The translations under genes and the position numbers were made by a program. Positions 5,101-10,898 of a stretch of 39,490 bases of DNA are shown here, piece after piece. The notes under the pieces were generated by a model that worked only from the letters and a program-made list of their open reading frames with translations, ran no database searches and was not told the origin of the DNA. This stretch comes from Patescibacteria group bacterium (lineage in GTDB: Bacteria > Patescibacteriota > Minisyncoccia > Minisyncoccales > PWPS01): positions 1 to 39,490 of the forward strand of contig JBNJDU010000004.1 in the NCBI GenBank assembly GCA_051745165.1. Direction: 5' to 3'. Position 1 is the stretch's first letter; each line of letters opens with the position of its first letter.

Positions 5101-5550
5101 AAACTCTTCCTCAATTTCTTCATCACTACGCGTCTTAATTCCTTTTGGATCAACCTCTTTTTCTAAGTCTTCTAAGTCACTCATTAGTTTCTTTCTTTTG
5201 TCACTTATTTCCTTCAATCTACCTCTTTTTTCTTCATCTTTGATTTTTTCTTCCAATTTCAAAATGCGCTCCTCAATTTCATCAGGATATCCTTTTTCAA
5301 TGTATTCTTTCTCCAGTTCTTCTATTTTTCTTTTATTTTCTTCCATTTTAGACTCTAAAGTTTTGAAAGACTCCTCCATCTCTTTTTTTGCCTTTTCAAT
5401 TTGCTCTGGAGTTACTTCTAATCTATAACCTTCTGCAAACCTTCCTTTTTCATCTCTATTACTAATTTGCTTAGCACCATCTTCTTTTAGTTCCTTTTCT
5501 GTTTTTTTACGCTCCTTTTCTATTTTATTTTTATTAGTTTCTTCTTCCAT
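2161..5550 (-). CDS. Hypothetical giant (1129 aa) Glu/Lys-rich coiled-coil membrane protein
   Basis: Uninterrupted 3.4-kb ORF. It has a charged N-terminal third, Gly/Ala-rich hydrophobic segments (LMGAIGGALGL..., AGTAGAMTGGAIAGVGL..., ILFSAGLVAAFAGVADYV) and a very acidic C-terminal half. I recognise no family. Confidence 0.7.
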   Translation of the reverse strand: MEEETNKNKIEKERKKTEKELKEDGAKQISNRDEKGRFAEGYRLEVTPEQIEKAKKEMEESFKTLESKMEENKRKIEELEKEYIEKGYPDEIEERILKLEEKIKDEEKRGRLKEISDKRKKLMSDLEDLEKEVDPKGIKTRSDEEIEEEFVEKEKEIKEMEKEKEKLLNELEEQFEEKPKSKNSKKGKLKTAREIALEDLENIDKKLEEEDNNKEEENGKEKEGGKEEKKTDKNVEEEIDKVAKKIVDNEMLNNDEMKIQQENREEVRKRVSELYKEEAESKKEEKSEKKETNDQEEEKDSDEEKEEKIVNEEGLPEDLVEHLNKHTFEETNKSILQKGWKKSRNLMGAIGGALGLKKLATTVPGVSQFIKTAGTAGAMTGGAIAGVGLKLGSYGLEKWDETKKHKNFKENINEEIESSERSSKEVIENRMADLNTNMGIVKERLNELQREKEEMKEEGVWFFQKERREISAEITQHRKALERAEDQFRYLSVELKEREEGVNVEELAEKLIKDKKEQLKEKMEAGGPHSNLLKIMLISLEGSENIPGNETKEKANLMKTVKKAETGLMAKLEQENRSMAKEILFSAGLVAAFAGVADYVMELEPVQEKMENISDWISNKIDSLKGEPSSSEISEFERMLEKLKITTEENALETVDQIAEKEVSYSIEASDNIWSVTEEFLNDSLGEEFASLSEAEQTYVIDHITTTIESNPQSFGIDFAEGETIDHLFASSEHSVDFSPLLDGELEIALQKAESLSTEEVANILENNEAIREFLSEHKNVKITGETIESITGGAEIGELTEEKIADELILDGLKSESISSTEQLQNIESWLEDMHNGELSEASFDFMADTSEGGQRELWVKQLAKVEGVSYEEMETMIEDSFADIEGGAVESTAAEVANEGLTEREKEIVADWVEKIENDSLGESQYETLLDSKHEEMLEEIAKERGSSVEETEELIRERIQEIQEESGEVKTSPLGESREEAEELAEQVAGETEAAETETTSEKTTEVNEGSVETTYEIEGTITRNDRWDFFEAFQQEFGEEIFVESDIAELLESGEITPEEFMNWVEDGAFEEPVDFGGEHPPKDVLTRQLENSIERMKEAEDQTVYMGRLRALKMQISRLILYGK

Positions 5551-7575: not shown

Positions 7576-7701
7576 TTGTTGTTTTAAGAACTCCGCGGAG
7601 CTGATTTAGCATGGTTTTTGGCTTTGCCAAAATAAATCAGCGAGCGAAGAAAACCTAAATTATCGCTGGTAATTCTTAAGGTTTGATTCTTAAAACAACA
7701 A
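7576..7701 (+). ncRNA. Candidate structured RNA element, copy A (family shared with 27175-27393 and 31660-31718)
   Basis: A 15-bp perfect closing helix (7576-7590 / 7687-7701) encloses nested helices and a TCGCTGG-loop hairpin. The architecture is conserved with copy B while the helix sequences differ. Strand is tentative. Confidence 0.4.
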
Positions 7702-7712
7702 ACCGAAGGAGA

Positions 7713-9866
7713 TTATTTTTTGTAATCACAATCCTTATCTAAACATACCTCCTTACCCTTCTTTTCAACTACAATAGAGTCGCACTCAGGACAAGTCTCT
7801 CCAGTTGGGCGATAGTTAGTTCCAAATTTACATTTAGGATAATTGTCACAACCCCAAAATATCTTTCCTTTTCTGTTTACCCTTTTAATAATAGTTCCTT
7901 CGTCACATTTAGGACAGGCAATGCCAGTATCTTTAATTAGTTTTTCTGTGTTTTTACAGTCCGGATAATTTGTACACCCCCAAAACATACCGTATCTACC
8001 TTGTTTTAGTTTCATTTCTGATCCGCACTCACTACACTTCTTAGGTCCAAACTCTTCTTTCATTTTTTTAATCTCTTCTTTTTCATCATCCATTGGTTCA
8101 GTATATTCACACTCAGGGAAGTTGCTACAAGCTTTAAATTTTCCGTTTTTACCTAACTTTATTACTATTTTCCCGTCTTTACATTCAGGACAATCTTGGT
8201 CGGTTTCTTTTAAAATGTTTTGCTTGTCTAGAGATTCTTCCTTTTCTTTTACATTCTTAATAAAAGGTTCGTAAAAGTCCTTAATCATCTTTTTCCAGTC
8301 TTCTTTACCGTCAGCCACTTTATCTAATTTTTCTTCCATCTTGGCAGTAAATTCAAGATCTACAATATCGGGAAAATGATTTACTAGTAGGTTGCTAACT
8401 ACAATCCCAACATCAGTAGCATGAAGCTTCTTCTTTATCTTCTTTACATAGTTTCTGCTTTGTATGGTTGCTAAAGTTGGCGCGTATGTAGAAGGTCTAC
8501 CGATATCATTCTTTTCTAATTCTTTAATTAATGAAGCTTCACTGTAACGGGCGGGAGGTTTAGTCTCCTTTTCTTGAGTTTCTAGCTTTTCTAAATCTAA
8601 AATGTCTCCTTTAGATAGTTCCGGTAAGGTTTGCTCTTTCATTTTTATTGGGTAAACCTTCATGAAGCCATTGAAGAGAACTTGTTGACCAGAAGCTCTA
8701 AATAAATATTGCTTAGCTTCTACATCAATCTTTTTTCTTTCGATTACTGCGGAAGTCATTTGAGATGCTAAAAATCTCTTTCTAATAAGGTCGTAAAGCT
8801 TTTTCTCTTGAGCCTTGCCTTTAATAGTTTTCTTTTTTGGATTCGTTGGTCGAATTGCTTCGTGCGCTTCTTGCGTTCTTCCTTTTGATTTGAAGTTTCT
8901 CGATTTATAATATTTTTTACCGTACTTATCAATAATTATATCCTTTGCCGCTTTTTTCGATGATTTAGATAAATTAAAAGAGTCAGTTCTGTGGTAGGTA
9001 ATTAAACCTTTTTCGTAAAGAGTTTGGGCTAATCTCATTGTATACTTTGAAGAGTAGTTCAATCTTATTGAGGCATCTTGCTGCAATGTGCTGGTTGTAT
9101 ATGGAGGATAAGGACTTCTTTTCTTTTCTGATTTTCTAACATCAGCTACTTTATAATCTACTCCTTCTTCTTTTAATTCTTTTTTATATTTTTCAAATTC
9201 TCCCTTTTTAGTAATTCCCGGTTTGGAAATTTTATCACCATCTATCTTTATTAATCTAGATCTAAAAGAACTTCCATTTTTTAGATGGGCATAAATTAAC
9301 CAGTAAGTAACTGGATCAAAGTCTCTAATCTCCTTTTCTTTTTCTGCCACTAATCTAAGAGCAACTGATTGCACTCTTCCGGCAGATAGAGAAAAGTCTC
9401 TATATATCTTTTTCCATAAAAGAGGGGAGAGCTTGTATCCTACAAGTCTATCCAAAACTCTTCTTGCTTGTTGAGCGTTAACCAAGTCTTCATCAATATC
9501 TCTAGGATCTTCCAAGGCGTTTAGTATTGCTTCTTTGGTAATCTCGTGAAAAGATACTCGTTGATAATCTTTTAAATCTAATGCTTCTTTCAGGTGCCAA
9601 GAAATAGCTTCTCCCTCTCGATCTGGGTCAGTACTTAAGATTATCTGCTCTGCATCAGAAAGCTCCTTTTTTAGCTTCTTAATTGTCTTTTTTTGCCTTT
9701 TAGGAATAACATAATTTGGTTCAAAATCATTTTCTGTATCTACTCCTAATTTTTTCTGCGGCAAATCTCTTATATGTCCCTTAGTAGAGAGGATCTTATA
9801 TTCATCTCCTAAAAATTTACTAAGAGTTTTCGATTTAGTGGGCGACTCAACTAAAATTAATTTCAT
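7713..9866 (-). CDS. topA: DNA topoisomerase I
   Basis: 717 aa with an N-terminal TOPRIM (LVESPTKSKT...DPDREGEAISWH), the catalytic-Tyr region, and several C-terminal Cys4 zinc-ribbon repeats (CPECK..C..FPEC, CSECG..C..YPDC, CPKC..C..YPKC). Confidence 0.95.
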   Translation of the reverse strand: MKLILVESPTKSKTLSKFLGDEYKILSTKGHIRDLPQKKLGVDTENDFEPNYVIPKRQKKTIKKLKKELSDAEQIILSTDPDREGEAISWHLKEALDLKDYQRVSFHEITKEAILNALEDPRDIDEDLVNAQQARRVLDRLVGYKLSPLLWKKIYRDFSLSAGRVQSVALRLVAEKEKEIRDFDPVTYWLIYAHLKNGSSFRSRLIKIDGDKISKPGITKKGEFEKYKKELKEEGVDYKVADVRKSEKKRSPYPPYTTSTLQQDASIRLNYSSKYTMRLAQTLYEKGLITYHRTDSFNLSKSSKKAAKDIIIDKYGKKYYKSRNFKSKGRTQEAHEAIRPTNPKKKTIKGKAQEKKLYDLIRKRFLASQMTSAVIERKKIDVEAKQYLFRASGQQVLFNGFMKVYPIKMKEQTLPELSKGDILDLEKLETQEKETKPPARYSEASLIKELEKNDIGRPSTYAPTLATIQSRNYVKKIKKKLHATDVGIVVSNLLVNHFPDIVDLEFTAKMEEKLDKVADGKEDWKKMIKDFYEPFIKNVKEKEESLDKQNILKETDQDCPECKDGKIVIKLGKNGKFKACSNFPECEYTEPMDDEKEEIKKMKEEFGPKKCSECGSEMKLKQGRYGMFWGCTNYPDCKNTEKLIKDTGIACPKCDEGTIIKRVNRKGKIFWGCDNYPKCKFGTNYRPTGETCPECDSIVVEKKGKEVCLDKDCDYKK

Positions 9867-9966
9867 AGTTTCAAGTGTTAAAAATCAAACTAGCTTAAAA
9901 ATGCTACCATTAAATTCAACTATTGTAAATAAATAAACGTTTAAATCTTAAAGAACTAGTAAAAAC

Positions 9967-9994
9967 TTGACAAATAAAAAATATGTAATATAAT
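9967..9994 (+). promoter_or_regulatory. Sigma70-like promoter (TTGACA-16-TATAAT)
   Basis: TTGACA at 9967-9972 and TATAAT at 9989-9994. This would start a transcript just 5' of the structured leader at 10008. Confidence 0.5.
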
Positions 9995-10007
9995 ACAGTT
10001 ACCTTGA

Positions 10008-10203
10008 TCTTTAAGTTTATCTACGAAGGGTTCATTTCACTGGATCTTCTTTGAAGAACTGGTGAAACAAAAAAGGAACAAAAATCCTCCTTATATCCCT
10101 CCTTTCACATATTTTTGTTCTGGAACCTGCTCGTCTTTGACGAGTATTCCGTTTGGGATTCGTTTTCGAATTTCGGACGGAAATTCGTAGATAAACTTAA
10201 GGA
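10008..10203 (+). promoter_or_regulatory. Structured 5' leader or ncRNA of about 196 nt (four hairpins closed by a 17-20 bp helix) with an anti-SD loop
   Basis: The long-range stem 10011-10027 / 10184-10200 is perfect and extends by T-G, C-G and T-A pairs. Internal helices contain G-T wobbles on the + strand only. The loop at 10094-10105 is the exact complement of the SD region at 10205-10216. Confidence 0.5.
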
Positions 10204-10219
10204 AAAAGGAGGGATAGTA

Positions 10220-10297
10220 GTGAAGATATTAAAAATAATAGTTGAAGCCTTTGAGGAGTATTTCACTTACGGCGGAGATACTACTCATTGGATCTAA
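10220..10297 (+). CDS. Small ORF (25 aa, GTG start: MKILKIIVEAFEEYFTYGGDTTHWI)
   Basis: GGAGGG SD lies 7 nt upstream of the GTG and an intrinsic terminator follows. The longer track ORF 10115..10297 runs through the structured leader and is unlikely to be real. Confidence 0.35.
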   Translation: MKILKIIVEAFEEYFTYGGDTTHWI

Positions 10298-10324
10298 AAC
10301 TGAGTTAAAAAACTCAGTTTTTTT
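10298..10324. terminator. Bidirectional intrinsic terminator shared by the small ORF and pth
   Basis: Stem AACTGAGTT / AACTCAGTT with an AAAA loop and flanking A and T runs. The pth stop codon lies inside the hairpin. Confidence 0.8.
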
Positions 10325-10862
10325 CTTGGAATGATTTCTTTTCAAAACCCTCTTTTAATCCTTTTTTTATTTCTTTAATAGTTCTCTCTACAAGTTTATT
10401 AACTAACTTTTCTTCTTCTTTACTAAATTTCTTTAAAGCAATTTCACCAGCTTTCTTATTTTCTTTTCCAATTCCAAATCTGATTCTCCAAAAATTTTTA
10501 GTTGATAGGTGGTTAATTATTGATTGAACACCGTTGTGTCCTCCGGAACTTCTGTTTTTATCTATTTTTATCTTCCCTAAATTAATATCAGAGTCATCAT
10601 GAATGATTACTATATCTTTTGAATTAACATTGTAGTAACGAGCAAAATTGGAAACGGAAACACCGGATTTATTCATAAAAGTTTGTGGCTTTAAAAGAAC
10701 TACATCTCCTTCTTTAGTTAGAAGGCCATTAAACTTATTATCAAGACTAAAGTCGGGAAAATTTTCTTCCCTTTTTAATTTATCTATTATTCTAAAACCA
10801 ATATTATGACGAGTTTCTTCGTATTTTTGTCCTGGATTTCCTAATCCAACTATTAAAGTCAT
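10314..10862 (-). CDS. pth: Peptidyl-tRNA hydrolase
   Basis: MTLIVGLGNPGQKYEETRHNIGF signature. I start it at the ATG at 10862 rather than the TTG at 10898 used by the ORF track. Confidence 0.9.
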   Translation of the reverse strand: MTLIVGLGNPGQKYEETRHNIGFRIIDKLKREENFPDFSLDNKFNGLLTKEGDVVLLKPQTFMNKSGVSVSNFARYYNVNSKDIVIIHDDSDINLGKIKIDKNRSSGGHNGVQSIINHLSTKNFWRIRFGIGKENKKAGEIALKKFSKEEEKLVNKLVERTIKEIKKGLKEGFEKKSFQEKN

Positions 10863-10869
10863 TGCTTTT

Positions 10870-10898
10870 ATAATAGTATAGATTCTTAAAGGTGACAA
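10870..10898 (-). promoter_or_regulatory. Sigma70-like promoter for pth (TTGTCA-17-TATTAT); near-leaderless
   Basis: On the minus strand, TTGTCA is at 10898-10893 and TATTAT at 10875-10870. Only 7 nt separate the -10 box from the ATG. Confidence 0.45.

Follow-up and report, generated by a model that had tools for sequence, protein, structure and literature searches.

The closest described counterparts of the element discussed here, a structured RNA encoded in a 39,490-nucleotide (nt) stretch of a Patescibacteria group bacterium (contig JBNJDU010000004.1 of assembly GCA_051745165.1, positions 1 to 39,490 of the forward strand; this whole stretch is hereafter the window), are small RNAs (sRNAs) of alphaproteobacteria. 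The 'cuckoo'/alpha-r14 RNAs, NfeR1 and the Rhodobacter RNAs CcsR1-4 carry in hairpin loops a CCUCCUCCC-type motif complementary to the Shine-Dalgarno (SD) sequence, and this anti-SD motif pairs with target ribosome-binding sites (PMC4615179, PMC10746234, PMC3927594). The CcsR RNAs are also physically linked to a small open reading frame (ORF), DUF1127 (PMC8034643). The window RNA, which lies on the + strand between topA and pth, resembles them in being a small RNA, independently or co-transcribed, that exposes a conserved anti-SD motif in a loop. It shares no sequence or structure homology with them and no Rfam match. Whereas the alphaproteobacterial RNAs are tandem simple stem-loops, often multi-copy and Hfq-dependent, the window RNA is a closed multi-helix junction, single-copy in the window, with a closing helix of 20-26 base pairs (bp), a host in another superphylum and a fixed synteny. 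Its small ORF lies downstream, in contrast to the upstream ORF of CcsR.

Partial likenesses extend to other groups. The C/U-rich loops of the Firmicute RNAs RsaE and RoxS likewise target SD regions (reviewed in PMC9266662 and PMC5521070). The dual-function sRNAs RNAIII-hld, SR1-SR1P and SgrS-SgrT combine a structured regulatory RNA and a translated micro-ORF on one transcript, as the window RNA appears to do. The hld product has 26 amino acids (aa), compared with 25 aa for the window ORF. Neither RsaE/RoxS nor the dual-function sRNAs are homologous to the window RNA, in whose family the ORF is optional and lineage-dependent; a further difference from the dual-function sRNAs is that here the RNA carries in its seed loop the complement of its own ORF's SD. 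In the preQ1-II/III and SAM-II/V riboswitches, and in the fold-back of the hok, tisB and aapA1 mRNAs, a loop or 5' segment pairs with an SD located 3' of a folded domain, a layout also seen here. Unlike such translational riboswitches and SD-sequestering leaders, the window RNA is associated with no ligand-linked gene family, has relatives without any ORF, is closed by a helix too long and stable to switch, and has no match in Rfam.

Patescibacteria, or the Candidate Phyla Radiation (CPR), have tiny genomes and make up a large share of bacterial diversity. Our literature searches found no description of such an RNA in this group and no validated CPR sRNAs, the latter a point made explicitly in a TM7x transcriptome preprint (10.1101/2022.03.25.485537). 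The RNA family described below is new relative to Rfam, although its likely mode, an anti-SD loop seed with an optional micro-ORF, has precedents (PMC4615179, PMC10746234, PMC8034643, PMC9266662); its new aspects are the scaffold, the host superphylum and the fixed synteny.

A conserved structured RNA between topA and pth

Positions 10001-10325 (+) are predicted to form one transcription unit consisting of a consensus promoter, a structured RNA of ~210 nt, a 25-codon ORF and a terminator. The unit falls in a 447-bp intergenic spacer (9867-10313) flanked by two - strand genes, topA and pth. Its sigma-70-type promoter, TTGACA-16-TATAAT at 9967-9994 (+), was correctly identified in an earlier reading of the sequence (the original prediction) and matches the consensus at 12 of 12 positions. 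The -10 box ends 7 nt ahead of A10001, placing the predicted transcription start at ~10001, 1 nt before the closing helix. At the other end, the GTG-initiated ORF of 25 codons (10220-10297, +) is followed, as had also been claimed, by a strong intrinsic terminator with an 11-bp stem, a 4-nt loop and a T-run (stem-loop 10296-10321, extending to 10328 with the T-run, +). In all five relatives described below the promoter, from its -35 box through the spacer to its -10 box, is nearly invariant, and the terminator at 10296-10328 is kept in four of them (L001, L002, L088 and L091).

Within this unit, 10002-10209 (+) fold into a closed, multi-branched RNA of several helices, all of them given here on the + strand. 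The minimum free energy (MFE) of 10000-10325 is -114.4 kcal/mol, compared with -71.5 +/- 4.6 for dinucleotide shuffles (z = -9.4), while the - strand folds less well (z = -6.1). The closing helix, P1, is built from two 26-nt arms (10002-10027 and 10184-10209) that are 88% complementary, and its core in the MFE structure is 20 bp (10008-10027 with 10184-10203), which bears out the enclosing helix of 17-20 bp first described. The earlier reading missed an outer extension of 4 bp, in which CCUU (10002-10005) pairs with AAGG (10206-10209). These last nucleotides of the P1 3' strand (10184-10209) are common to the outer helix and to the SD region (AAAGGAGGGAUA, 10205-10216), so that the extension already covers the first GG of the SD, whose GGAGG (10208-10212) stands 7 nt before the GTG.

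P1 encloses the four hairpins originally proposed, H1 to H4, all present within a base or two, and an overlooked 6-bp helix, P2 (GGGUUC 10028-10033 with GAACCU 10123-10128), which in turn encloses H1 and H2. H1 (10035-10049 with 10053-10067) is located where it had been placed but has 14 pairs and an A.A mismatch at 10044/10058, with a UUU loop, rather than 15 perfect pairs. H2 (10075-10121, arms GAACAAAAAT and ATTTTTGTTC) has a stem of 10-11 bp and a loop of 25 nt, CCUCCUUAUAUCCCUCCUUUCACAU (10086-10110), which is CU-rich, exposed, and unpaired in both the MFE and the centroid structures. As first noted, CCUCC occurs in this loop twice: the anti-SD motifs are CCUCC at 10086-10090 (motif A) and CCCUCCU at 10097-10103 (motif B). 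H3, a lineage-specific insertion, likewise stands at its proposed location, with 7 bp (10129-10135 with 10139-10145) and not 6. H4 (10147-10162 with 10167-10182) has the 16 bp and four G.U wobbles described earlier, and its UUUU loop lies inside CGUUUUCG.

Conservation of the helices in related genomes had been set as a test of the original prediction, and they are kept, with compensatory changes. The host of the window RNA is a near relative of Candidatus Nealsonbacteria. Two Nealsonbacteria-like metagenome-assembled genomes (L001 and L002) encode the best matches to the window's Pth (68% and 62% identical), and together with three metagenome contigs (L087, L088 and L091) they give five distinct relatives that carry the element between pth and topA, antisense to both (L090 and L084 are duplicates of L001 and L002). 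Six of the 11 metagenome pattern matches (L081-L083, L085, L086 and L089) were set aside as chance CT-rich stretches in unrelated sequence. The element is 80-84% identical in nucleotide sequence between the window and its relatives; all helices, the promoter and the loop are kept in the five relatives, and the 25-nt loop is nearly invariant among the six sequences.

RNAalifold, applied to the six sequences, finds 78 pairs, 21 of them with double changes. When the structure named above is scored on the same alignment (77-78 pairs), pairing holds in 95.6% of cells, and compensatory changes occur at 21 pairs. Shuffled controls yield 9.2 +/- 2.2 compensatory pairs, with none of 500 at the observed value, and sliding the partners by 1-3 columns leaves only 3-6. 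The changes are spread over the helices: 10 of 15 pairs in H1 and four of six in H3 are compensatory, P2 has one compensatory change, and P1 shows compensatory swaps in L091 (A-U to G-C and U-A to A-U), while 18 of its 24 pairs never vary within the Nealsonbacteria type. The covariance model R1, built from these six sequences, scores 235 bits on the + strand and 44 bits on the - strand. This difference and the retention of invariant G.U pairs place the RNA on the + strand, in agreement with the earlier argument from wobble pairs. As judged from these comparisons, the structure is under selection and represents a conserved RNA rather than a chance palindrome.

A wider family in Patescibacteria

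Beyond the Nealsonbacteria type, R1 matches two loci of Doudnabacteria, with 33 bits for L018 (E ~1e-6) and 28 bits for L015 (E ~4e-5) in 0.72 Mb, and aligns P1 and H4 with their counterparts there. The RNA at such loci is a short form of ~137 nt with a three-way junction, found in Doudnabacteria, Buchananbacteria and other Patescibacteria. Its P1, of 26 bp, encloses an 8-bp hairpin whose loop of 11 nt is CAUCCCUCCUA, a single-stranded joiner that is conserved (AGUAACCnnAAGUU) and a second hairpin, P3, of 13 bp with a UUUU loop, which adjoins the P1 3' strand and corresponds to H4. A scan for ATCCCTCCT uncovered the same RNA in L009, L010, L032, L037, L042 and L060 and a shorter one in L064. 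In an alignment of eight of these short-form sequences, compensatory changes affect 27 of the 48 pairs, a number that 500 shuffles never attain; slid controls give 5-10. Two further models built from short-form sequences, R2 and R3 (all three models were calibrated), add L073 and L065 from Buchananbacteria as well as L026 and L064, at E values of 1e-9 to 1e-24. With these included, CCCUCCU is the only loop sequence common to all family members.

The family thus delineated has ~17 firm members, or 17-20 loci. Three tentative members are counted apart: L067, a weaker candidate, and L025 and L057, where the same site is occupied by a long, simple hairpin that has CCCUCC in its apical loop. In every member the RNA is encoded on the strand opposite to pth and positioned between pth and dprA/topA, and nearly all loci have the gene order pth(+), RNA(-), dprA(+), topA(+). 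All members have a TTGACA promoter upstream of the RNA. Across the 80 pth loci examined, the RNA is absent from every non-CPR one.

The family core consists of a closing helix of 20-26 bp, a hairpin with the CCCUCCU loop, a conserved junction and a second hairpin with a UUUU loop. The window RNA shares the long closing helix, the CCCUCCU hairpin loop and the UUUU-loop hairpin next to the P1 3' strand, and it also shares the setting, being antisense in the pth-dprA/topA interval behind its own TTGACA promoter. By this comparison it is an enlarged version, in which H1 (not present in the short form) and H3 are inserted, P2 is lengthened, and the loop has grown from 11 to 25 nt and gained a second CCUCC. 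The long and short forms very probably belong to one family.

A search of Rfam 15 (4227 models), as had been proposed at the outset, returned no match at the gathering threshold in the window, L018, L015, L001 or L088. At E<=10, the window gave only noise (best 19 bits against a 102-bit threshold) and L018 gave nothing. 6S RNA was considered and rejected: the fold is a multi-branch junction, not a central bubble, and has no Rfam match. Given its vertical conservation at one syntenic locus in several CPR lineages, the covariation, the consensus promoter and the invariant anti-SD loop, there is a strong case for considering the RNA a candidate riboregulator of translation throughout the lineage. 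The three covariance models and ~17-20 loci make the family searchable.

Individual loci show further features. Two Doudnabacteria loci (L009 ~5290-5305 and L037 ~5470-5485, -) carry a conserved palindrome, CTATAAAATATAG, between the -10 box and the start of P1, a possible operator site through which a repressor could act on the RNA gene. In the Buchananbacteria-type loci L073 (3120-3132) and L065 (4535-4547, -), the P1 3' strand passes directly into a U-tract (..CGGCAGCGGUUUUUG..), and in members of this type the closing helix may itself serve as the terminator stem. L032 (DATJFX010000056.1), labelled Candidatus Methylomirabilota, has a Doudnabacteria-type RNA and the pth-RNA-dprA-topA synteny typical of Patescibacteria; this contig is probably mis-binned or mislabelled. 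At the Doudnabacteria locus L018, a gene for a 23S rRNA-intervening-sequence protein (PF05635; 3611-3976) lies immediately upstream of pth.

The downstream ORF and a proposed anti-SD pairing

The peptide encoded downstream of the window RNA, MKILKIIVEAFEEYFTYGGDTTHWI, is amphipathic, with an acidic/polar C-terminal half. Homologues of 25 aa are found in L088 (MKVFKKIIEIFKEYILYGGDTKYWT, 56% identity) and L001 (MKKIISFLKNIVIEYFLYGGTKSWR, 52%), and all three share the motif EY[FI]xYGG(D)TxxW. Differences between the window and L088 ORFs fall at codon positions 1, 2 and 3 in the numbers 8, 5 and 14. The peptides of L091 (29 aa) and L002 (63 aa) are more distant but retain a tail of the form ..LYG.G.. 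or ..G(S/T)K.W. This pattern suggests that the ORF is probably translated, and it adds a conserved micro-protein missed by standard gene callers. Conservation of the peptide also speaks against one option in the original prediction, a stand-alone noncoding RNA whose 3' part only mimics a ribosome-binding site.

The ORF is nevertheless dispensable to the family. Among the ~17 firm members, 11 have a strong SD and a small ORF on the same strand before the terminator, and these ORFs are unrelated between lineages: Doudnabacteria-type loci encode different peptides of 32-60+ aa with one or two transmembrane (TM) segments behind AAGGAGG. In L087, L064, L073, L065 and L026, and in the tentative member L057, a terminator or U-run directly follows P1 and no ORF is present; L087, which is of the Nealsonbacteria type, has lost its ORF. 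The ORF therefore lies outside the family core, which is probably an independent small RNA and not just a leader, since P1 is directly followed by a terminator or U-run in at least five members.

The exact 12-nt complementarity between the H2 loop and the SD, on which the original prediction was centred, is upheld. Loop segment 10094-10105 is the exact complement of the SD region at 10205-10216, an occurrence that is unique in the window and expected 0.00 times in shuffles. The loop:SD duplex (computed over the 20 nt before the start) has -19.5 kcal/mol, against -14.7 kcal/mol for the SD with the canonical 16S rRNA tail (not the host's own), in keeping with the proposal that the loop can act as an anti-SD; with two-part pairing the value is -25.3 kcal/mol. 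Among ~43 start regions of the window, the element's own SD is the strongest partner of the loop, and it is the only one with extended complementarity. In L002, an 11-bp complement between loop and SD likewise reaches beyond the generic SD. The outer helix (CCYU/RRGG) overlaps the SD. Resemblances to 16S rRNA beyond the anti-SD (UUGAUC, GGAACCUGC and CGUAG) were dismissed as probable coincidence, the segments not being collinear with 16S.

Structure, conservation, covariation, strand, synteny and promoter/terminator signals are shown here, and from them we infer a mechanism. The exposed CCCUCCU loop, for which the SD element is the only ubiquitous partner, would base-pair with SD sequences. 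In cis, both the loop, over 12 nt, and the CCUU at the 5' terminus, over 4 bp, would clamp the SD of the co-transcribed micro-ORF, so that a loop-SD pseudoknot and the 5' fold-back would hold down its translation. The existence of ORF-less members points to a primary role that is independent of the ORF and probably exerted in trans, most simply by pairing with the SDs of mRNAs in a genome where many SDs are weak or absent. Two features expected of a trans-acting anti-SD sRNA can be compared with the window. The conserved, unpaired C/U-rich seed complementary to SDs is there, and so are the signals for an own promoter and terminator, but the window terminator comes only after the ORF, whereas in ORF-less relatives it comes directly after P1. 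The preferred reading is accordingly that of a conserved Patescibacteria sRNA at the pth-dprA/topA locus whose anti-SD loop would pair with SDs, in cis on the micro-ORF and probably also in trans, to which we assign a probability of about 0.5. In sum, what the original prediction observed holds, and its interpretation was partly right.

Several results weigh against this reading. Most ORF-bearing members have a generic AAGGAGG, for which the loop and the canonical 16S tail are equally good partners; because SDs outside the window and L002 are generic, specific loop-SD pairing lacks family-wide support. The loop is invariant and so leaves no loop-SD covariation to assess, and a loop that never varies, together with conserved junctions, is just what a site bound by a protein might also show. 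No trans target came to light; the divergent neighbours topA and dprA lack, in their start regions, any SD that complements the loop, so that these two genes were rejected as trans targets. A reciprocal search of the window with R2 (filters off) recovered only H4 (E = 0.23) and not the RNA globally; the link between the long and short forms consequently rests on one-way R1 matches, the three shared features and identical synteny. Among expression data, metatranscriptome run X14 has contigs of relatives over 10004-10128 and 10172-10205, one of which contains the -10 box, with uninformative ends. An identical contig in run X8 covers only 10262-10420, and a 155-nt contig in run X19 (of unknown kind) covers the L018 RNA from ~39 nt upstream of P1; both are likewise uninformative on transcript ends.

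In the window, pth and topA are examples of the many genes whose plausible starts are preceded, within 20 nt, by a weak SD or by none; GGAGG is nonetheless commoner in the window than expected (73 observed against 43). These data suggest a mixed regime of leaderless and SD-led translation. A broader and rather doubtful extension is that the RNA is a Patescibacteria-wide housekeeping riboregulator that mimics the anti-SD tail of 16S rRNA and sets the balance between SD-led and leaderless or SD-less translation. In doing so it would compete with ribosomes for mRNAs that have an SD, or else titrate away a factor with affinity for the anti-SD tail, and the captured downstream micro-ORFs would be built-in cis targets or sensors. 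If this is true, CPR would gain their first described conserved regulatory RNA, one that controls translation initiation globally in a way not known elsewhere.

Alternative explanations and the surrounding locus

One alternative is that a protein binds the RNA at the invariant CCCUCCU loop, the conserved junction and the long helix, with the RNA acting as a decoy or scaffold for a factor whose normal ligand is the anti-SD tail or single-stranded C-rich sequence, such as Era (through its KH domain), bS21 or bS1; the long P1 could also be cut by RNase III, which would free the core from the mRNA of the ORF. The loop does resemble the 16S 3' tail (AUCCCUCCUUUC compared with AUCACCUCCUUUC, the tail being the canonical E. 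coli-type and not the host's own), and its nucleotides, like those of the junction, never vary, in contrast to the covarying stems. The unusual sequence conservation of P1 within subgroups, the persistence of the family where no ORF follows and the generic character of the downstream SDs in the short form point the same way. No candidate partner gene is linked to the RNA, however, its neighbours being pth, dprA and topA, and the loop beyond CCCUCCU is not conserved between lineages, which limits 16S-tail mimicry to the anti-SD core. We regard this explanation as unlikely, and a purely cis-acting leader as slightly more so. Such a leader, riboswitch-like or otherwise responsive to a signal, would mask and unmask the SD of the small ORF, an option that the frequent pairing of a strong SD with a small ORF before the terminator, the three-way junction with its conserved nucleotides, and the window's loop-SD complementarity together with its 5'-end CCUU:AAGG pairing would all accommodate. 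In its main option the original prediction took the structured part for this ORF's leader, and that part of it does not survive the finding of a Patescibacteria-wide family with members that terminate right after P1. Downstream ORFs as unrelated as the amphipathic 25-aa peptide here and the 1-2-TM peptides of Doudnabacteria do not fit a riboswitch, and the RNA is much better conserved than the ORF. The sensing of a ligand or of temperature, also raised at first, found no evidence: with 20-26 very stable pairs, P1 would make a poor switch that cannot plausibly open and close, and no alternative terminator or antiterminator pairing was seen, nor any alternative to P1 itself.

The remaining alternatives are considerably weaker. 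In an arrangement like that of type I toxin-antitoxin systems, a small and perhaps harmful peptide would be silenced by a folded 5' region that sequesters its SD by 5'-3' fold-back and internal anti-SD sequences, as in the hok, tisB and aapA1 mRNAs. The short hydrophobic peptides of the Doudnabacteria type, with their charged tails, would suit this, as would the presence, in the one transcript, of three CU-rich segments able to pair with the SD. The window peptide, though, is insufficiently hydrophobic for a membrane helix and so does not resemble a toxin, and 10000-10330 contains no - strand promoter-like site for an antisense antitoxin. Distant lineages moreover share one syntenic locus, in contrast to a patchy distribution of multiple copies, and the RNA persists where the ORF is absent, making this arrangement improbable. 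Least probable is that the element is not an RNA gene at all and is instead a miniature inverted-repeat mobile element or a DNA-level palindrome that lies by chance between convergent and divergent genes. Apart from the long terminal inverted arms of 26 nt, the evidence runs against this: the 39-kb window contains a single copy, all relatives (17-20 loci) have the element at the same position and in the same orientation, and a conserved consensus promoter abuts the 5' arm. The helices show compensatory changes, and their conserved G.U pairs would turn into A.C mismatches if read from the opposite strand. Searches of phage and plasmid collections were negative, which also argues against a mobile origin.

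Of the flanking genes, pth (10314-10898, -) is convergent with the RNA unit and has its stop at 10314, and topA (7713-9866, -) encodes Topoisom_bac and Toprim domains and zinc ribbons. The terminator hairpin at 10296-10328 has an A-run on its 5' side in addition to the T-run on its 3' side; owing to this A-run it appears to be bidirectional, ending both the RNA/micro-ORF unit (+) and the convergent pth (-). On the topA side, the promoter of the RNA (-35 box at 9967-9972, +) overlaps back-to-back with - strand promoter-like sites in the region 9901-9994, namely TTGTCA (9973-9968) with TAAGAT and two more, which would drive topA. The topA gene has no recognisable SD ahead of its ATG at 9866. A scan for tRNA and tmRNA genes found none. 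A second, unrelated structured element is located just 3' of topA (7576-7701), where a 15-bp closing helix surrounds two hairpins; it has neither a CCUCC loop nor an Rfam match, and it folds with z = -5.6 on the + strand and z = -7.4 on the - strand.

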